A stretch of 64,000 nucleotides of DNA from Candidatus Nomurabacteria bacterium (GTDB taxonomy: Bacteria > Patescibacteriota > Patescibacteriia > HK-STAS-PATE-3), in NCBI GenBank assembly GCA_023898465.1, contig CP060223.1, positions 288,001 through 352,000 of the forward strand, written 5' to 3'. The notes under the pieces are model-generated. The model ran no database searches. It was not told the DNA's origin and saw only the letters and a list, made by a program, of their open reading frames with translations. Position 1 is the stretch's first letter, and each line of letters starts with the position of its first letter. Shown in pieces: positions 5,382 through 51,031 of this stretch. The position numbers were made by a program, and so were the translations under genes.

Positions 5382-5456
5382 GGCCCTATCGTCTAGTGGC
5401 TAGGACGCATGGTTCTCATCCATGTAACAGGGGTTCGATTCCCCTTAGGGCTACCA
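5382..5456 (+). tRNA. tRNA-Glu (anticodon CTC), CCA encoded
   Basis: Hand-folded cloverleaf. Acceptor GGCCCTA/TAGGGCT, D arm GTCT-AGTGGCTA-GGAC, anticodon stem CATGG/CCATG with loop TTCTCAT, T arm AGGGG-TTCGATT-CCCCT, discriminator A, then CCA. 75 nt. Confidence 0.93.
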
Positions 5457-5539: not shown

Positions 5540-5840
5540 GAACGGGCGAGGACGTCTGCCAGCGGCAGGCGACCGCAAGCCCCGGCCTGAAGTCCCGATA
5601 GGGACGGAATGGTCGATTCCCCTTAGGGCTACCACGGGCCATTGCGCCGTGCGGACTGCGTCCGACCAGGTCGGACTCCGCCCTTACGGCGCATGTCCCT
5701 TTCCCCATTGCAAACAGTCCCTCTCGGCAGCCTCGAGGTCCTTGGTTTGCAACGGGGGCCCCGATAAGAGTGCGGGCCCAAGTGCTCGGCATTACAAAGC
5801 GTCCCAGAAAAAATGCCAGACACAAGTCTTCGGCATTTAA
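5540..5840. other. GC-rich, heavily base-paired non-coding segment (possible ncRNA or relic of foreign DNA)
   Basis: Nested helix 5644-5692: GCGCCGT/ACGGCGC enclosing GCGGA/TCCGC enclosing GTCCGAC/GTCGGAC. Long-range TTGCAAAC/GTTTGCAA pairs 5708-5715 with 5745-5752. Hairpin at 5811-5838. Only overlapping multi-frame ORFs lie here. Confidence 0.3.
5613..5634 (+). repeat. 22-nt exact direct repeat of the tRNA-Glu 3' end (copy of 5435-5456)
   Basis: TCGATTCCCCTTAGGGCTACCA occurs at 5435-5456 (T loop to CCA of the tRNA) and again at 5613-5634. Confidence 0.9.
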
Positions 5841-5927
5841 TGAGAAGAAGACGTAGGTCAACTTCAGAGTGAGTCACCACAAACATCGTCGCTGCGCTAG
5901 AGGCAGCATAATTCAGGAGGAAAAAAT

Positions 5928-20537: not shown

Positions 20538-20569
20538 GACAAGGCGTCCCGGCCTTGTCGTAGTTTTTT
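20538..20569 (+). terminator. rho-independent terminator of dnaJ
   Basis: GACAAGGC-gtcccg-GCCTTGTC followed by GTAGTTTTTT. Confidence 0.75.
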
Positions 20570-20757: not shown

Positions 20758-21081
20758 ATGTCCTGCACTTTTACCTTTCCCGTACCCAAGGGCGTCACGG
20801 AGTTTCGGATCACCACACCCAATTCTGAGAAACTGGCCGGCACCGGACCTCGCTGGGTGGAGGTCAAGGAAGGCTGGACCAGATCCTACAAGCCGATCGA
20901 GGGTGGGCCTGGTACCATCAGAGTGACCAAGGTTGGTCAGGTGCGAGGCGGACACCGTATGGTGACCGTCGAGCTGGTCGACATGACCGCCACCTACGAG
21001 GCGGTGCTGCACTGCAAGCCGGCACCGAGCCAGGCAGTGCAGGAGGCCAGACAGGAGGTCCCGGTCGCCCAAGCATCCTAG
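20758..21081 (+). CDS. orphan hypothetical protein in a high-GC cassette
   Basis: SD GAGGAGGGA at 20745-20753. 107 aa with strongly G/C-biased third codon positions. Has its own terminator. No family recognised. Confidence 0.6.
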   Translation: MSCTFTFPVPKGVTEFRITTPNSEKLAGTGPRWVEVKEGWTRSYKPIEGGPGTIRVTKVGQVRGGHRMVTVELVDMTATYEAVLHCKPAPSQAVQEARQEVPVAQAS

Positions 21082-21103: not shown

Positions 21104-21137
21104 AACGGCCTAGTATTGCACTGGGCCGTTTTCTTTT
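21104..21137 (+). terminator. rho-independent terminator
   Basis: AACGGCCTAG-tattgca-CTGGGCCGTT (10 bp including one G.U) followed by TTTCTTTT. Confidence 0.7.
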
Positions 21138-25296: not shown

Positions 25297-25379
25297 AAAG
25301 CAAAGGGGAGTGTAGTACATTCAAATGTGGGTGTAAAGGGAGCATTTGACATATTTTCATATTGTTTTATCCTTAGTCA

Positions 25380-25871: not shown

Positions 25872-26051
25872 ATGAGGTTGTTTCTTCTTTGTGTCACCAT
25901 CGTCGCCCTGCCAAGCATGTTTGGCTATGCGGTGCTATGGGCGAGTGCTCGAGGAGCAAAGGCCATCGAGGATGAGCTCCCTGACGACAGGGAAGGGCGG
26001 CGGGCAGCTCATTTGGCCAGATCGCTTGATCCACCTTTTCCTGACTACTAA
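25872..26051 (+). CDS. small orphan membrane/secreted protein (59 aa), below the ORF-track cutoff
   Basis: Translated by hand: MRLFLLCVTIVALPSMFGYAVLWASARGAKAIEDELPDDREGRRAAHLARSLDPPFPDY. SD GAGGAGGGA at 25861-25869. A terminator follows. Confidence 0.45.
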   Translation: MRLFLLCVTIVALPSMFGYAVLWASARGAKAIEDELPDDREGRRAAHLARSLDPPFPDY

Positions 26052-26068: not shown

Positions 26069-26097
26069 GAGACGACTTTGCCCGGAGTCGTCTTTTC
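26069..26097 (+). terminator. rho-independent terminator
   Basis: GACGACT-ttgcccgg-AGTCGTC followed by TTTTC. Confidence 0.65.
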
Positions 26098-42834: not shown

Positions 42835-43704
42835 ATGGCCAAAGCAATCGAAAAAAAAGATAAGTTTCACACTGATAAGTCGCCAACTTGGTGCCCGGGC
42901 TGCGGCGATTTCAGTATTTGGATGGCGCTGAAAGAAGCGTTGGAGAAGTTGCAGCTAGAACCAGAAAAAGTTGTGATTGTGTACGGCATTGGTTGTTCTG
43001 GCAATATGGCGAATTATGTCCGCACCTATGGCTTCCACGGCCTGCACGGAAGAGCCTTACCAGTAGGTGAGGCGGTGAAGATGATTAATCCAGGCATGAC
43101 CGTGATCGTAGTCGGTGGAGATGGTGATGGTTTGGGCGAGGGGATCGGCCATTTCTTGCACTCAGTGCGTGGCAATCATGATCTCACGTATATTATTCAT
43201 GATAACCAGGTGTATGGCCTAACCACTGGGCAGACCGCGCCAACCTCAGCTAAGGGTTTTGTTACAAAATCTACTCCCTTCGGCGTCTTGGAAGAGCCGG
43301 TGAACGCCGCAGCACTAGCTTTAGCAGCTGGCGGGCACTTTGTGGCGCGTGGTTTTGCTGGCGAGCAAATGCATTTGGTTGATACTTTGGTTCGAGCTAT
43401 TCAGCACCCTGGCTTCTCGCTTGTAGATGTACTCCAGCCTTGTGTCACTTTTAATGACTTAAATACCTACGCCTGGTTTTTTGAGCGTATTTACAAACTG
43501 GAAGAGAGTGAGTATGCTCCGAATGACCGAATGCAGGCGATGGTAAAAGCAATGGAAAGCGCCACGCTGCCGATTGGTGTGATGTATGAAGGTGAAAGTA
43601 CGCCATATCATTTGGGTGTTGAGGGTCTGGATATTAGTAAGCCTTTAGCTGAGCAAAAGTTGAAGCCGAGAAATATTTCTACGATTGTCGAGCACTACCT
43701 CTAA
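42835..43704 (+). CDS. korB: 2-oxoacid:ferredoxin oxidoreductase beta (TPP-binding) subunit
   Basis: TWCPGCGDFSI, GIGCSG, GGDGDGLGEG. Confidence 0.88.
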   Translation: MAKAIEKKDKFHTDKSPTWCPGCGDFSIWMALKEALEKLQLEPEKVVIVYGIGCSGNMANYVRTYGFHGLHGRALPVGEAVKMINPGMTVIVVGGDGDGLGEGIGHFLHSVRGNHDLTYIIHDNQVYGLTTGQTAPTSAKGFVTKSTPFGVLEEPVNAAALALAAGGHFVARGFAGEQMHLVDTLVRAIQHPGFSLVDVLQPCVTFNDLNTYAWFFERIYKLEESEYAPNDRMQAMVKAMESATLPIGVMYEGESTPYHLGVEGLDISKPLAEQKLKPRNISTIVEHYL

Positions 43705-43705
43705 G

Positions 43706-45496
43706 ATGAGCACCACAACTCAGGAACAGTTTCGGGAGGGGCCGAGCACGTCACGGGCGCGTTGGCTTTTTCGTAACCCAGTCGCCGAAAGCTTTGCCGC
43801 CAGCTTCCCTGAACATAGCGCGGTTATGCTGCAGCTATTGCAGGCACGGGGCTTAGAAAAGCAAACGCAAATTGATGAATTTTTGCAGCCTGATTATGGC
43901 AGCGACGTGCATGACCCTTTCCTTTTTCGTGATATGCACAAAGCGGTTGATCGCATTATTGATGGCGTGAAAAAAAATGAACGCATTGTTGTGTATGGCG
44001 ACTATGATGCTGATGGCGTGTGTGGCGCTTCTGTGCTCTGGTCTACTCTACATGCCCTCGGTGCCAACCCAGGAGTGTATTTACCTGATCGGCAGAGTGA
44101 GGGTTATGGTTTAAATGAAAAAGCCCTAGAGTCGCTTCACTCGCAGGGTTACACTCTCGTAATCACGGTTGATTGCGGTGTGACGAGCGTGGGGGAAGTA
44201 AAGAAGGCAAATGAGTTAGGCATCGACGTTATTATCACTGACCACCATAGCGAGCCGCCGGAGCTACCTGCCGCTTTTGCTATTCTCAACCCAAAACTCG
44301 CTGAAGAAACATATCCATTTCGTGAATTAGCCGGTACTGCTGTAGGTTTTAAACTAGCTCATGCGCTTTTACTTAAAAGTGAGTATGGGAAATCCTTTAA
44401 TCGTGAGCCCCTCGTGCAAGGTTGGGAAAAATGGCTACTTGATTTAGTGGCAATAGCCACTGTAGCAGACATGATGCCGATGTTAGGTGAGAATCGCACG
44501 TTAACCATGTATGGCTTGAAGGTGTTGCAAAAAACCCGCCGCCTGGGATTACGTTCACTTTTCTCTGTCATGCATAATGATCTCGCGAAAGCGGATACCG
44601 AGACTATCGGCTTCATGATAGCTCCACGCTTAAATGCAGCTGGTCGCCTTGATCATGCAAACACTGCTTTTCGTTTACTTGTTACTGAGGACGCCGCTGA
44701 AGCATTCGCACTGGCTGACGATTTAGAACGGACCAATACAGCTCGCCAGGCAGAGACAGAGCGAATCGTTGATGCAGCTATTGAGCAAATTGGATCTGAG
44801 CCCGAGCAACCGATTGTCGGTGCGTATCATCCAGACTGGCAAGTTGGCGTACTGGGATTAGCGGCCGGCCGCCTGGTGCATCGCTATGGACGTCCGGCTA
44901 TTGTTATGGCTAAGGTGCGTGGTCTGGTAACGGGATCAGGACGTTCTATACCTGCGCTAAATCTCATGGAAGCACTTGACCCGCTTCGTCCAAATTTTGA
45001 AAAGTTCGGTGGGCATCCGCAGGCATGTGGCTTCACATTGAAGGCAAATTACACACCAGAGGAATTTGTTATAGATTTTGCCGCGCGCGCCGGAGAGCTG
45101 CTGAAGGGGAGGGAGTTAGCACCGGAATTACTTATTGACGCGGAACTAGTTTTGCATGATGTGAATTGGGATTTACTTGAACAAATTGAGCAACTGGCAC
45201 CTTTTGGACAGAATGCGCGACGTCCAATTTTCGCAGTCCGCAATGTACAGGTCGTTGAAGCGCGCCAGGTAGGCAAGAAAAATCAACACCTCAGCCTTAC
45301 CATTCGTTCTGCGCAGGGGACTGAACATCGTAGCATCGGCTTTACCTGGGGAGAGGAGCACAGTAAACTACCAGTAGGCAAAAATATTGATTTAGCTTTT
45401 GAGCTCAGTGCAGACGAATGGAATGGTGAACGTCGCCTGCAGCTCAAAATACTTGATATTCATTACAGCGATGAAACAGATAATACTTCGATCTGA
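43706..45496 (+). CDS. recJ: single-stranded-DNA-specific exonuclease RecJ
   Basis: DHH family motifs: VVYGDYDADGVCG, ITVDCG, IITDHH, plus GGHPQACG (DHHA1). Confidence 0.9.
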   Translation: MSTTTQEQFREGPSTSRARWLFRNPVAESFAASFPEHSAVMLQLLQARGLEKQTQIDEFLQPDYGSDVHDPFLFRDMHKAVDRIIDGVKKNERIVVYGDYDADGVCGASVLWSTLHALGANPGVYLPDRQSEGYGLNEKALESLHSQGYTLVITVDCGVTSVGEVKKANELGIDVIITDHHSEPPELPAAFAILNPKLAEETYPFRELAGTAVGFKLAHALLLKSEYGKSFNREPLVQGWEKWLLDLVAIATVADMMPMLGENRTLTMYGLKVLQKTRRLGLRSLFSVMHNDLAKADTETIGFMIAPRLNAAGRLDHANTAFRLLVTEDAAEAFALADDLERTNTARQAETERIVDAAIEQIGSEPEQPIVGAYHPDWQVGVLGLAAGRLVHRYGRPAIVMAKVRGLVTGSGRSIPALNLMEALDPLRPNFEKFGGHPQACGFTLKANYTPEEFVIDFAARAGELLKGRELAPELLIDAELVLHDVNWDLLEQIEQLAPFGQNARRPIFAVRNVQVVEARQVGKKNQHLSLTIRSAQGTEHRSIGFTWGEEHSKLPVGKNIDLAFELSADEWNGERRLQLKILDIHYSDETDNTSI

Positions 45497-45881
45497 CGGC
45501 GGCGCGCGGGGCAACCCAGGTCCAGCCGGTATTGGCGTGGTCCTAGAGGCTGATGGGCAAATCGTAGCAGAAATCAGCGAGTATATTGGTGAAGCGACGA
45601 ACAATGTTGCTGAGTACTCAGCCTTGATTGCTGGTCTGAAAAAAGCTAAAGAATTAGCCGCTACAACCGTGCAGTGCTTTCTCGATAGTCAGTTGATTGT
45701 TGAGCAGATGAATTTACGCTACAAAGTAAAAAATCCAGACTTGGGTAAACTTTTCTTGCAAGCGCAAAACCTGGCACACACTTTTAGTAAAGTGACCTAT
45801 CAGCATGTACCGCGCGAATTAAATAAAGCCGCTGATGCGCTGGTGAATAAGGCGATTGATAGTGCGGTGGGCGCTAGCTAA
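45471..45881 (+). CDS. rnhA: ribonuclease HI-type protein
   Basis: ILRSDGGARGNPGPAGIGVVL, TNNVAEYSALI, DSQLIVEQ, NKAADALVN. Overlaps recJ by 26 nt. Confidence 0.8.
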   Translation: MKQIILRSDGGARGNPGPAGIGVVLEADGQIVAEISEYIGEATNNVAEYSALIAGLKKAKELAATTVQCFLDSQLIVEQMNLRYKVKNPDLGKLFLQAQNLAHTFSKVTYQHVPRELNKAADALVNKAIDSAVGAS

Positions 45882-45891
45882 CTTTATTCGC

Positions 45892-46281
45892 ATGCACAAG
45901 GACATTGAATTATATAACAGGGCTTTAACGGCAAAAGAAAAAGCCATTTGCACAACGCTTGCTCACAGCATTGACGAGAGTCTTAAGTTGGCAGAAAGTA
46001 AAATATGGCACGCCCATCCGGTTTGGTTCTTAGCCGGTAATCCCATTGTCGGGTATAGTAAAATGAAGGAAGGTGTTCGGATACTTTTTTGGAGCGGCCA
46101 ATCCTTTGATGAGGAAAAGTTACAACCCGAAGGAAGTTTTAAAGCAGCTGAAGCCAGATATACTAATGTGAAGCAAATGAATAAAACTGACCTTAAAAGG
46201 TGGCTAAAAAAGGCAAAAGAAATTCAGTGGGACTACAAAAATATAGTCAAGCGAAAAGGACGACTTGAGAGGTTGAAATAG
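45892..46281 (+). CDS. DUF1801 (YdhG-like) domain protein
   Basis: 129 aa. HPVWFLAGNPIVGYSKMKEGVRILFWSG resembles DUF1801. Recalled from memory; not searched. Confidence 0.55.
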   Translation: MHKDIELYNRALTAKEKAICTTLAHSIDESLKLAESKIWHAHPVWFLAGNPIVGYSKMKEGVRILFWSGQSFDEEKLQPEGSFKAAEARYTNVKQMNKTDLKRWLKKAKEIQWDYKNIVKRKGRLERLK

Positions 46282-46324
46282 CGTTGTGTTAACTAGACGG
46301 TTCTTGATGGTGAGTTTTTTTATT

Positions 46325-46513
46325 TAAACAAAGAAAAAGACCCCCCATCAGATGTGCTAATGGGGGGTAGGGACGGGTCTCGGCGGCACCTTAGGGCACC
46401 AGGGGTCCGCTCTGTTCTACGGTCAACTTTTTCACGTCTCAAGGGACGTGCCAAAGAGTGCTGAACAATCACAGACCGCGTTGGCCACTGTATGCACTCG
46501 CTCACCATCCCGT
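46325..46513 (-). ncRNA. candidate orphan ncRNA (~190 nt) with own promoter and terminator
   Basis: On the minus strand: TTGACG (46548-46543), 17-nt spacer, TAGCTT (46525-46520). GC-rich body with a CACGTC/GACGTG hairpin. Terminator ACCCCCCAT-11 nt-ATGGGGGGT followed by CTTTTTCTTTG (46368-46325). Confidence 0.35.
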
Positions 46514-46629
46514 GTGCAGAAGCTAACAAAAACTACCTTTTGCGTCAATAGAGAGTATGACAATTACCAACTTTCCTTGCAAAAAAGGTCATTTTCAGGC
46601 ACTATTAGCCCGTACTTAACCACACACCT

Positions 46630-49386
46630 ATGCGCATGCGACGATGGATTCTCACAATAGTAGCAGTAGTTTTTGTGCTCAGTGCTTTAATTGCAGCTTT
46701 AGCGAACACCATAACAGATTGGTGGTGGTTTCAATCGATTCAGCAGACTGATCTCTTCCTCACGCCATTGTATACACAACTACTCTTAGGTTTCGGAGTA
46801 GGCTTATTTGTGGCTCTACTTTTCTTTTTTAATACCTATTTAGTTGGTCGTTTCGCGCGTACGCCATCAAAGACTTTTCAATGGTCACAACGAAAAGGGG
46901 ATGCTGTAGAAATTAAGTCGGTAGCGGTGGCGCCATTTGCTCGCAAGATAAGCATGGTCTTTGCCTTGCTCCTTGGGTTAATTTTTGGATTTACTGCGGC
47001 TAGTCACTGGGAAACCGTGCAACTATTCCTTCATCGTGTGGCTGTTGGACAGACCGATCCATTATTTGGGCGTGATGTGAGTTATTACTTTTTCACGCTG
47101 CCTTTTGTAAAGATTGTGGTACAGACGGCTTTTGCGGCCATGTTACTACTCACCATAACGACCATTGTTTTGTATTTTGTGCATGGTGCCTTAGAAGTTG
47201 GTCGTCGCATTATGGGGCGGGATCGACTGGGTATGAAGACTTTAGTAAGCGCCGCACGTCAGCATCTGTCCATTATCAGCGCGATTCTTTTCGCCTTAGT
47301 CGCTGTTCAGCTTTATTTCATCGCAGTTCCGGATTTAGTGTATAGCGCTACTGGTCCAATCACTGGAGCGAGTTATACCGATGTCCACATCCGCTTGCCC
47401 ATCCTTTATATCGGCACGGGTATTGCGATTCTTCTAGCCGTCAGTCTACTTGCCCACAGTATTAAATCCTCTACACGTTGGGTGGCTGGATTTGCCGGAG
47501 CTTTTCTAGTTCTCTTCATTGTCGGTGGTTGGTTAGTGCCTGATTTGTTGCAGCGCTTCGTTGTTTTACCGAACGAATTAGATAAAGAGTCGGAGTATAT
47601 CACCCGTCATCTCGAGGCTACTCGGCAAGCCTATGGTTTAGATACCATTGAGAAACGTGATCTATCCGGTGACACCGCACTAACCCGGAGTGATATTGAT
47701 GCGAATCCTGGCACAATTAAAAATGTTCGCTTGTGGGATCGCGATCCACTTCTTGATACCTTTAGCCAGATTCAGGAAATTCGCACCTACTATGAGTTTA
47801 ATTCGATCGATAATGATCGCTATACCATCAATGGTGATTATCGTCAGGTGCTATTGTCACCCCGTGAATTGGAGGCTGGGAATCTCCCTCAGCGTAATTT
47901 TATTAACGAGCATCTAACCTTCACCCACGGATATGGACTTACCTTGGGTCCTGTGAACGAAGTCACACCAGAAGGTTTACCAGTGCTATTTGTGCAGGAT
48001 ATTCCACCAAGCTCTTCCACTAATGTTGAGGTGAAGCGTCCGGAAATTTACTTCGGTGAATTAGCAAATGATTACGTCGTAGTAGATAGCGGTGCGAAAG
48101 AGTTTGATTATCCATCCGGTGAGGAAAATGTCTTCAGTGATTACAGTGGAGATGGGGGAGTGCAGGTGAACTCTCTATTCCGTAAGTTGCTCTACGCTAT
48201 TCGCTTCCAATCAAGTAAATTCCTGTTCTCCTCAGATATCAAAGGCGACTCACGCGTCATGTACTACCGTGATATTCAGGATCGAGTGCAGCGTACCTTG
48301 CCGTTTTTACGCTTTGATGGTGACCCATATCTCGTGGTGCGTGATGATGGTTCCTTGACTTGGATCTACGACGCGTATACCACCTCGAATGCGTATCCAT
48401 ATGCCGAGCGAGTCTCTGATGCACTCCTACAGCATAATAGCGGTGGGCTCTATGGTCAGATTAACTACATTCGCAATGCGGTAAAAGTGAGCATTGATGG
48501 ATATACAGGCGCCATGACCTTCTATGTCGCGGACGCTAATGATGCAATTATTCAGGCATATCAGGGCGTTTTCCCGGCTAGCTTCACCTCAATGAATGAA
48601 ATGCCGGATGATTTGCGTTCACATATCCGCTTCCCAGAAGATATGTTCCAGTATTTGACCAACATCTACTCGATCTATCACATGGAGGATGCGCAAATCT
48701 TCTATAACCGCGAGGACCAGTGGTCGATTCCAACCCGGCCAAATGAAAGCTCTGATCCCTTCATGCGACATATGATTATGCGCTTGCCAGAAGAGGAAAA
48801 AGAGGAATACATCCTCATGCTTCCTTTCACGCCTAGGGGTAAAGATAATCTCTCAGCCTGGATGGTTGCCCGAAATGACGGCCAACACTACGGTCAATTG
48901 GTTGTGTATCGATTCCCGAAACAAAAGTTAGTGTATGGCCCAATCCAGATCATCAATCGTATTAACCAGGATCCGGATATTTCGCGACAAATTTCACTTT
49001 GGGATCAGCGCGGCTCAGAGGTTATTCGTGGTAACTTGTTGGTTATCCCGATTGAGTCATCCTTGCTTTATGTGCAGCCAATTTATCTCCGTGCCGAAGG
49101 AGGACGCATCCCAGAGTTGAAGCGCGTCATTGTAGCGCATGAAAACAAGATCGCCATGGAGGAAACGCTTGATCAAGCCTTGATTCGACTTTTCCCTCGT
49201 GATGGAGAGGCGCCAGCACCGAGCAATACCACCGATGAAGAGACTGATACCACGGACGCAAGTGTGGCGCAGCAGGCCAGCGATGCATACCAGCGAGCCT
49301 TAGATGCGCAGCGGAATGGCGACTGGACGACCTATGGCGAGGAGATACAGCGTCTCGGTGAGTTGCTTGGGCAGCTAAACCAATAG
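46630..49386 (+). CDS. UPF0182 family large membrane protein
   Basis: 918 aa. About 7 N-terminal TM helices plus a large soluble region. Hallmark LLYVQPIYLRAEGGRIPELKRVIVAHENKIAME. Confidence 0.8.
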   Translation: MRMRRWILTIVAVVFVLSALIAALANTITDWWWFQSIQQTDLFLTPLYTQLLLGFGVGLFVALLFFFNTYLVGRFARTPSKTFQWSQRKGDAVEIKSVAVAPFARKISMVFALLLGLIFGFTAASHWETVQLFLHRVAVGQTDPLFGRDVSYYFFTLPFVKIVVQTAFAAMLLLTITTIVLYFVHGALEVGRRIMGRDRLGMKTLVSAARQHLSIISAILFALVAVQLYFIAVPDLVYSATGPITGASYTDVHIRLPILYIGTGIAILLAVSLLAHSIKSSTRWVAGFAGAFLVLFIVGGWLVPDLLQRFVVLPNELDKESEYITRHLEATRQAYGLDTIEKRDLSGDTALTRSDIDANPGTIKNVRLWDRDPLLDTFSQIQEIRTYYEFNSIDNDRYTINGDYRQVLLSPRELEAGNLPQRNFINEHLTFTHGYGLTLGPVNEVTPEGLPVLFVQDIPPSSSTNVEVKRPEIYFGELANDYVVVDSGAKEFDYPSGEENVFSDYSGDGGVQVNSLFRKLLYAIRFQSSKFLFSSDIKGDSRVMYYRDIQDRVQRTLPFLRFDGDPYLVVRDDGSLTWIYDAYTTSNAYPYAERVSDALLQHNSGGLYGQINYIRNAVKVSIDGYTGAMTFYVADANDAIIQAYQGVFPASFTSMNEMPDDLRSHIRFPEDMFQYLTNIYSIYHMEDAQIFYNREDQWSIPTRPNESSDPFMRHMIMRLPEEEKEEYILMLPFTPRGKDNLSAWMVARNDGQHYGQLVVYRFPKQKLVYGPIQIINRINQDPDISRQISLWDQRGSEVIRGNLLVIPIESSLLYVQPIYLRAEGGRIPELKRVIVAHENKIAMEETLDQALIRLFPRDGEAPAPSNTTDEETDTTDASVAQQASDAYQRALDAQRNGDWTTYGEEIQRLGELLGQLNQ

Positions 49387-50490: not shown

Positions 50491-50578
50491 GGCACACCCT
50501 CCGTATGCATAGTGGAAACTGACGCTTACTATGGTACTCCAGGAGGGACTATCTCGCAAAAAGTGGAGAAATAGCAAC

Positions 50579-50607
50579 TTGACAAACAGGCGCTTTTTCG
50601 GTATGTT
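50579..50607 (+). promoter_or_regulatory. sigma70-type promoter of rnpB
   Basis: TTGACA, 17-nt spacer, TATGTT. The -10 element ends 5 nt before the first P1 base. Confidence 0.7.
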
Positions 50608-50612
50608 CGCAT

Positions 50613-51031
50613 GTGCTGACGTGCGCCGGATGACTGCTCCGCCTTAGGTGGAGAGGAAAGTCCGAACACCCCCCAAGCCCCCCATTTTTGAGAGGTTTGT
50701 GGAAGTAGGTCGTTCCGAAAGGGAACCGAGCAATTGGTTGTAAGCTTTCGGCCGAATAACCAATGGTTTAGGGAAAGTGTCACAGAGACAATACTGCCGA
50801 TGATCTCGCTTAGCGGGATACAGGTAATAGGTGAAAAGTAAGGGCCTAAGAATCCTTTCTCTTCATAGGTGACTATGAGGAGTGAAAAACCCGACCTGGT
50901 GCAAGATCGCATAGGTCTAGTCATTCGACTGGACGGGTAGATCGCATGATCCCGACGGCGACGTCGGGGCTAGAGAGATAGTCATCCCTCATTATGAGGA
51001 CAGAATTCGGCTTATAGGTGTGCGTCAGCAC
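50613..51031 (+). ncRNA. rnpB: RNase P RNA (bacterial type A)
   Basis: P1 pairs GTGCTGACG (50613-50621) with CGTCAGCAC (51023-51031). Conserved GAGGAAAGTCCGAAC, ACAGAGACAATACTGCC and ACAGAATTCGGCTTATAGG blocks are present. Confidence 0.92.

Follow-up and report, generated by a model that had tools for sequence, protein, structure and literature searches.

Gene context and transcription signals

The window analysed here is the whole 64-kb stretch of DNA (64,000 nucleotides), about 90% of which is coding, with nearly all genes on the + strand. It comes from a CPR bacterium, and CPR organisms have roughly 1-Mb genomes. Around the locus of interest, the + strand carries, in order, genes for RecJ (43685–45496), an RNase H-like protein (to 45881), a DUF1801 protein (45856–46281), and a UPF0182 membrane protein (46630–49386). 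The candidate unit sits on the minus strand of the 348 nt that separate DUF1801 from UPF0182. A first-pass annotation had described it as an orphan minus-strand transcription unit between two + strand genes, and its self-contained signals are indeed real and correctly oriented.

The two flanking genes differ in their affinities. UPF0182 has no close relative: scans of genome and metagenome contigs and a search of 5.8 billion proteins gave best matches of only 62% and 60% identity. The best DUF1801 matches are 70–76% identical when the identical protein and one 92% relative are excluded, and the few with organism names are Bacteroidota (Niastella, Pinibacter, and Cyclobacteriaceae). Because matches of 70–76% occur in Bacteroidota, whereas UPF0182 next door has no relative above 62%, the DUF1801 gene was probably acquired horizontally. 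Its GC content (41%) and its codon score (0.09) both depart from native values.

On the minus strand, a −35-like hexamer, TTGACG (46543–46548), is followed after a 17-nt spacer by an extended −10-like element, TG-T-TAGCTT (46520–46528; TG at 46528–46527 and the hexamer at 46525–46520), both read directly from the DNA. The promoter proposed in the first pass, TTGACG and TAGCTT spaced by 17 nt between 46548 and 46520, is therefore present, and the upstream TG is added to it. TAGCTT matches the consensus at three of six positions, retaining A2 and T6 with the TG upstream, and it is owing to this 3/6 match that the site is absent from the list of a sigma-70 scan. To place it among other sites, we counted the loose pattern TTGACN-N16-18-TAnnnT, which occurs 11 times in the window versus 7 ± 3 times in shuffled sequences; seven of these 11 sites fall in non-coding DNA, which makes up roughly 10% of the window. 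One site (TTGACA-17-TATGTT, 50579–50607) precedes the RNase P RNA, which starts at 50618, another (TTGACG-18-TATTCT, 63422–63393) precedes tRNA-Thr, and three further sites (13547, 31853, and 62134) precede protein genes. This non-coding enrichment and this placement before RNA and protein genes indicate that the loose pattern predicts real promoters here. Judged by its sequence, the candidate promoter is of the type used by known RNA genes of the same genome. With 11 such sites spread over 128,000 strand positions, the chance of finding a same-strand site 120–260 nt upstream of the terminator described below is about 0.01 by our own arithmetic. Promoter geometry predicts a minus-strand transcription start at 46512–46515, 5–8 nt downstream of the −10 element.

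The RNase P RNA is of class A (164.8 bits, 413 nt, to 51030), and its near-consensus promoter ends 11 nt before it; the minus-strand ORF of 131 aa (50529–50924) that overlaps this RNA is spurious. A candidate + strand promoter for UPF0182, TTGCAA-17-CACTAT (46577–46605), was read by eye as a weak match and probably stands back to back with the minus-strand promoter. Moreover, an 11-nt perfect inverted repeat, ACAAAAACTAC / GTAGTTTTTGT (46526–46536 and 46666–46676), joins the spacer of the minus-strand promoter to UPF0182 codons 13–16, and a 13-nt, 85% inverted repeat joins the spacers of both divergent promoters (46529–46541 and 46583–46595). These inverted repeats could be a shared operator or could be due to chance.

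At the other end of the unit, a minus-strand hairpin stem at 46368–46340 is followed by CTTTTTCTTTGTTT. The terminator scanner lengthens the stem to 12 pairs, and scan and folding together give an intrinsic terminator at 46326–46368 with a 12-bp stem (seven G-C pairs), a 5-nt loop, and then CUUUUUCUUUGUUU. Its folding energy is −21.1 kcal/mol (z = −4.3), and none of 200 shuffled sequences folds equally well. The hairpin and U-tract had already been recognized in the first pass on the minus strand at this position; the scan of the whole window additionally ranks the 46368–46326 hairpin as the strongest terminator-like site of the entire 64 kb. The window's other strong terminators (20538 and 21104) each close a + strand unit at its 3′ end. 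Since no T-run follows the hairpin on the + strand, the orientation of the terminator suits the minus strand only.

Predicted RNA, coding capacity and known RNA families

The predicted RNA is ~185 nt long, with its start near 46513 and its 3′ end near 46330. Between the promoter and the terminator lies a GC-rich body (minus strand, 46370–46511, about 59% GC) for which the minimum free energy (MFE) fold predicts one long imperfect hairpin. The GC content of the unit is 58.5%, compared with a window mean of 47.3%, which places it at the 98.5th percentile among 176-nt windows and bears out the GC-rich body noted earlier; in this respect the unit resembles the tRNAs (54–58%) and exceeds the RNase P RNA (51%). 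In the predicted fold, the closing stem pairs GGGAUGG (46511–46505) with CCGUCCC (46377–46371), and the apical hairpin is formed by CACGUC and GACGUG (46450–46433). The latter corresponds to an internal hairpin of the first-pass description, CACGTC (46450–46445), loop CCTTGA, and GACGTG (46438–46433). The GGTGCC repeat of that description can likewise be read directly on the minus strand as GGTGCC-CTAA-GGTGCC (46385–46400; copies at 46400–46395 and 46390–46385), on the 3′ strand of the predicted rod. Each of these two features, taken alone, is at chance level.

The full unit folds with z = −4.08, whereas the opposite strand does so more poorly (z = −1.93). Much of this signal comes from the terminator: the 146-nt body without it has an MFE of −54.4 kcal/mol and z = −2.24, and 6 of 200 shuffled sequences fold as well. 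The predicted layout comprises a 4-nt 5′ tail, a rod of roughly 140 nt with paired ends, and the terminator, which begins one base later. No competing antiterminator pairing was found in the predicted fold, and the MFE structure accommodates both rod and terminator; constitutive termination therefore fits this arrangement, and a switch does not. Complementarity of the RNA to other loci of the window, as well as its duplex energy against 58 translation-initiation regions in the window, did not exceed that of shuffled RNA.

The only ORF of the unit encodes 69 aa (minus strand, 46320–46529; 62 aa from the ATG at 46508), and we judge it non-coding from homology and codon statistics. A word-indexed search of 5.8 billion proteins returned no homologue of this ORF (ORF69), which is itself absent there as a called gene, and no gene was called over it on an identical contig of the Logan assembly (L025, described below). 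HMMER against 1.84 billion representative proteins gave five weak matches, all to long proteins in 5–10 stretches; the two that were read in detail are translated tandem repeats. With a codon log-odds model trained on 20 native genes, ORF69 scores −0.11 per codon, compared with 0.27 ± 0.10 for held-out native gene chunks, none of which is as low. Wrong-frame chunks score −0.52 ± 0.26, and 3.5% of them reach the level of ORF69. GC by codon position is 0.54/0.58/0.51, highest at position 2, unlike the usual low position-2 GC that is seen in another small ORF of the window (ORF107, 20758–21081) and in both ORFs of the related contig L024 (see below). Furthermore, the frame crosses the terminator stem, and its TAA stop (46322–46320) lies beyond the U-tract. 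Homology, codon statistics, and this terminator read-through thus agree with the earlier view that the ORF is unlikely to be a gene. A conserved small protein had been named in the first pass as an observation that would speak against an RNA unit, and neither protein library contains a homologue of ORF69. Judged on these sequence criteria, ORF69 is not a gene.

A scan of the whole window against Rfam 15 returned only the RNase P RNA and two tRNAs, both at the gathering threshold and at E ≤ 1. A permissive search (E ≤ 10) of the 501 nt at 46200–46700 gave sub-threshold noise only, including the matches to PyrR, NsiR1, and miRNA/snoRNA families. The best of them was the PyrR binding-site attenuator RF00515, with 21.5 bits (E = 1.2) against a gathering score of 54, and the terminator accounts for most of this score. 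We rejected membership in this family: the match is below threshold, and what follows downstream is the convergent DUF1801 gene, not a pyr gene on the same strand. The Infernal/Rfam scan for 6S, SRP, and other families that the first-pass annotation had proposed therefore gives nothing credible at the candidate unit. Its failure to find SRP RNA or tmRNA features by eye is upheld by the lack of any Rfam match to either family, and ARAGORN finds two tRNAs only in the window. In contrast, its suggestion of a possible 6S RNA did not hold: no Rfam 6S model matches even at E ≤ 10, and no large central bubble is predicted. The single-sequence MFE and centroid folds lack a central bubble between long arms, and they show a 7–9-bp closing stem and small internal loops; the sole 15/15-nt open region, in the centroid fold, adjoins the short closing stem. 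With no family match in Rfam, 6S RNA, SRP RNA, and tmRNA are all unsupported.

Several other places in the window contain GC-rich or structured DNA. The highest-GC stretch, at about 5540–5900 (peak 66.5%), has junk-looking ORFs and no Rfam match; its minus strand forms long near-perfect hairpins (fold z = −3.4), with a small minus-strand terminator-like hairpin at about 5836–5808. This stretch may represent foreign DNA or a structured RNA. The 3′ end of tRNA-Glu (TCGATTCCCCTTAGGGCTACCA) is present as an exact 22-nt direct repeat at 5435–5456 and 5613–5634, with a spacing of 178 nt; the repeat resembles an att scar, as left when an element inserts into the tRNA gene or is excised again. The 107-aa ORF107 mentioned above (GC 62%, GC3 75%, no Pfam match) is flanked by strong + strand terminators at 20538–20559, after dnaJ, and at 21104–21130, and is probably a horizontally acquired small gene. 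Finally, a + strand promoter, TTGACA-16-TATCCT (25346–25373), is followed by about 490 nt without a convincing ORF. Next comes a 59-aa ORF (25872–26051) whose N-terminus is hydrophobic and whose ribosome-binding site, GAGGAGG, is strong, and then a GACGACT/AGTCGTC terminator hairpin near 26070–26097. The long leader before the 59-aa ORF has no Rfam match.

The DUF1801–UPF0182 interval in related genomes

The relatives' loci that we searched (L001–L020 and L026–L034) comprise about 280 kb around UPF0182 of relatives with 57–62% identity. Neither nhmmer (--max) nor blastn found an RNA homologue there, and a single-sequence covariance model of the 146-nt body (R1) found only itself in 284 kb consisting of the window and the relatives' loci. 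In the 62% relative (L020), the synteny from RecJ and RNase H to UPF0182 is kept; the interval is filled with different + strand genes, and no RNA-like sequence is present between RNase H and UPF0182. Upstream of UPF0182, five loci (L001, L003, L013, L020, and L026) leave too little space for such a unit.

Two useful contigs came from the search with the DUF1801 protein. One of them, L025 (Logan assembly, run SRR23493594), matches the window at 100% over 45300–46534. The other, L024 (run SRR17818317), is the only close relative found and encodes a 92%-identical DUF1801. Its nucleotide identity is 91.5% over window positions 45495–46268 (RNase H–DUF1801), and the similarity then breaks off, 13 nt short of the DUF1801 stop codon. 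Past the break, the minus strand carries two unrelated ORFs, one of 115 aa and one of 95 aa (L024 785–1747), the former with CxxC pairs and a promoter-like site upstream. Each is followed by a copy of a 38-nt terminator-containing repeat (799–836 and 1354–1391), with 95% identity between the copies. Pfam gave no significant match for either ORF, and tblastx of the window against L024 gave nothing past DUF1801. The replaced stretch has a GC content of 51% compared with 45% for the flank, and its repeats suggest a variable junction with cassettes that are modular or have been duplicated. Because unrelated sequence occupies this place in L024, the spot just after DUF1801 is such a junction. More broadly, the whole RNase H–UPF0182 interval behaves as a variable junction that holds the DUF1801 gene, probably acquired, and small units that differ between strains. 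A scan of viral contigs for the 16-mer GGTGCCCTAAGGTGCC gave three matches, which were judged to be chance for want of flanking similarity, and blastn against phage records gave nothing.

Collectively, these comparisons indicate that the candidate unit, as far as its sequence can be followed, is not shared even at genus-level divergence. Lack of conservation had been put forward in the first pass as the result that would count against the unit, and this is what the comparison gave: L024 differs, and no homologue was found in the roughly 280 kb searched.

A different arrangement is found in another Patescibacteria clade (L029–L034), whose UPF0182 proteins (P0006–P0008) are 56–57% identical to that of the window. 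There, UPF0182 is preceded by a gap of roughly 355 nt, in which lies a conserved minus-strand unit that is itself a candidate RNA (5729–5925 in L029/L030; about 2722–2860 in L031/L032; about 2727–2864 in L033, for L033/L034). It has a conserved TTGACA-N14-TGnTAnnnT promoter with an extended −10, a GC-rich hairpin body of ~90 nt in a 37% GC genome, whose ends pair as GGGGAU...AUCCCC, and an intrinsic terminator. Among its three distinct sequences, the stem changes are mostly one-sided and pair-preserving, and two pairs are changed on both sides. No Rfam family matches it. A second conserved promoter and a conserved minus-strand gene of ~107 aa follow, and given that gene, the analogue could be a leader. 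No homology to the window RNA was detected by nhmmer, by a covariance model built from the analogue (R2) on 46325–46548, or by R1 on the L029–L034 loci.

Interpretation and comparison with known systems

We propose that the unit is a strain- or lineage-specific, stand-alone non-coding transcript of ~185 nt, real and discrete, a reading for and against which we find the evidence evenly balanced. In such a case, RNA polymerase with the housekeeping sigma factor would start at about 46513 from TTGACG-17-TGnTAGCTT, divergently from the UPF0182 promoter, transcribe ~185 nt, and halt at the strong intrinsic terminator about 45 nt before the convergent DUF1801 gene. The product would consist of a 4-nt 5′ tail, a GC-rich imperfect hairpin of roughly 140 nt, and the terminator hairpin, and it may act in trans as a regulatory sRNA through base pairing or protein binding. 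For a regulatory function, our confidence is lower than for a discrete non-coding RNA. That the locus holds a genuine functional CPR regulatory RNA, recently acquired or fast-evolving and divergent from the UPF0182 membrane-protein gene, appears unlikely to us. Against an RNA gene we count the missing conservation, the body z-score of −2.2, the 3/6 match of the −10, and the lack, within the window, of targets above shuffled controls. Additionally, the high GC content could equally mark foreign DNA, and other GC-rich islands of the window hold plausible small ORFs.

Two alternatives read the DNA signals differently. In the main rival, the unit may be the decayed remnant of a strain-variable cargo cassette, in which promoter, scrambled body, and terminator survive and any transcript is functionless. 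The L024 contig is consistent with such a remnant, as it bears at the same position two small ORFs with a promoter-like site and terminator repeats in a stretch that is GC-richer than its flank (51% versus 45%); the RNase H–UPF0182 interval differs in L020 too, the ORF69 frame outscores 96.5% of wrong-frame chunks, and the unit is unconserved and belongs to no known RNA family. However, no residual protein similarity is left (by tblastx against L024, or as homologues of ORF69), and the codon-position GC of ORF69 lacks the coding pattern still present in the L024 ORFs and in ORF107. The promoter and the unusually strong terminator are, moreover, intact and neatly bound the predicted fold, and we regard a remnant as somewhat unlikely. 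Alternatively, there may be no RNA gene; the promoter would be a chance match, and the hairpin would act chiefly as an insulator or terminator that separates convergent from divergent transcription, ending the RecJ–RNase H–DUF1801 operon and stopping antisense transcripts that arise in the UPF0182 promoter region. A U-tract terminator is missing from DUF1801 itself, and in L024 the hairpin of the convergent gene occupies the same place; the −10 is a 3/6 match not called by the scan, and about 7 loose-pattern sites per window are expected by chance. Yet the U-run is on the minus-strand side only, and since UPF0182 and almost all neighbours are on the + strand, the hairpin would have nothing to terminate without a nearby minus-strand promoter. 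A correct-strand pattern 170 nt upstream has a probability of about 0.01, to which the extended −10 TG is added, and a 140-nt GC-rich stretch would be left unexplained. These points make a pure insulator improbable.

The remaining explanations fare worse. A conditional attenuator, riboswitch-like or bound by a PyrR-like protein, would let read-through produce antisense RNA across DUF1801. The unit is convergent with that gene, and its sole Rfam alignment is to a PyrR binding-site hairpin with terminator architecture, but 21.5 bits is far under the threshold of 54 and comes mostly from the terminator. No alternative antiterminator accompanies a rod and a terminator that coexist in the MFE fold, no minus-strand gene follows downstream, and the region is unconserved, all of which renders an attenuator very improbable. 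A divergent housekeeping RNA (6S RNA, SRP RNA, or tmRNA) has still less in its favour. The ~185-nt length and the rod-like predicted fold recall 6S RNA, whereas the absence of an Rfam match at E ≤ 10, of an ARAGORN tmRNA, and of a central bubble, together with the intrinsic terminator of its own and the absence from the same locus in the nearest relative, leaves hardly any weight to this explanation. We consider equally far-fetched a small basic protein of 62–69 aa, translated nearly leaderless from the ATG at 46508. Its frame is open across the unit, about 5 nt separate the ATG from the predicted start, and its codon score exceeds that of 96.5% of wrong frames; this score is nevertheless below every native gene chunk, and GC is highest at codon position 2. 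There is no homologue in either library, no gene call on L025, and no Shine-Dalgarno sequence, and the frame runs through the terminator stem to a stop after the U-tract.

If the discrete transcript that we favour is indeed made and is functional, it would be an sRNA defined from promoter to terminator in a CPR bacterium, a group for which riboregulation is unreported in the literature that we found; specifically, literature searches on CPR/Patescibacteria yielded nothing relevant on small RNAs or 6S RNA. Its present value is as a lead for metatranscriptome mapping, not as a finding. If the functional reading is true, then together with the L029–L034 analogue it would mean that, in these reduced genomes, the region upstream of UPF0182 has become a small-RNA locus on more than one independent occasion.

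Compared with known systems, the candidate shares with 6S RNA (ssrS, RF00013, and related families) a similar length and an imperfect rod with paired body ends. In contrast to 6S RNA, it has no covariance-model match or central bubble, it ends in its own intrinsic terminator, and its locus carries other sequence in the nearest relative. Similarly, it resembles the PyrR attenuator (RF00515), its sole Rfam alignment, in having a hairpin and then a terminator; it differs in departing from the binding-loop consensus and in lacking a downstream gene on its strand. The analogue of the L029–L034 clade agrees with it in position, in orientation (divergent from UPF0182), in promoter type, in a hairpin with paired ends, and in the terminator, while being shorter (~90-nt body) and without sequence or structural homology to the window RNA. 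Generic stand-alone sRNA genes of bacteria consist of a sigma-70 promoter, a structured body of 50–300 nt, and a Rho-independent terminator, and they are often divergent from a neighbouring gene. The candidate differs from them in being a single sequence without homologues and in having no assignable seed region, target, or chaperone. By an operational test for sRNA genes, conservation in relatives was not seen at the loci compared, whereas a promoter (loose) and a terminator (strong) of its own stand on the same strand of intergenic DNA that contains no credible coding frame. Thus, in architecture, size, the lack of an ORF, its intergenic site, and its divergent back-to-back promoters, the unit matches a generic sRNA gene, and it is an orphan small-RNA candidate of an ordinary kind in an unusual host, seen in a single genome.
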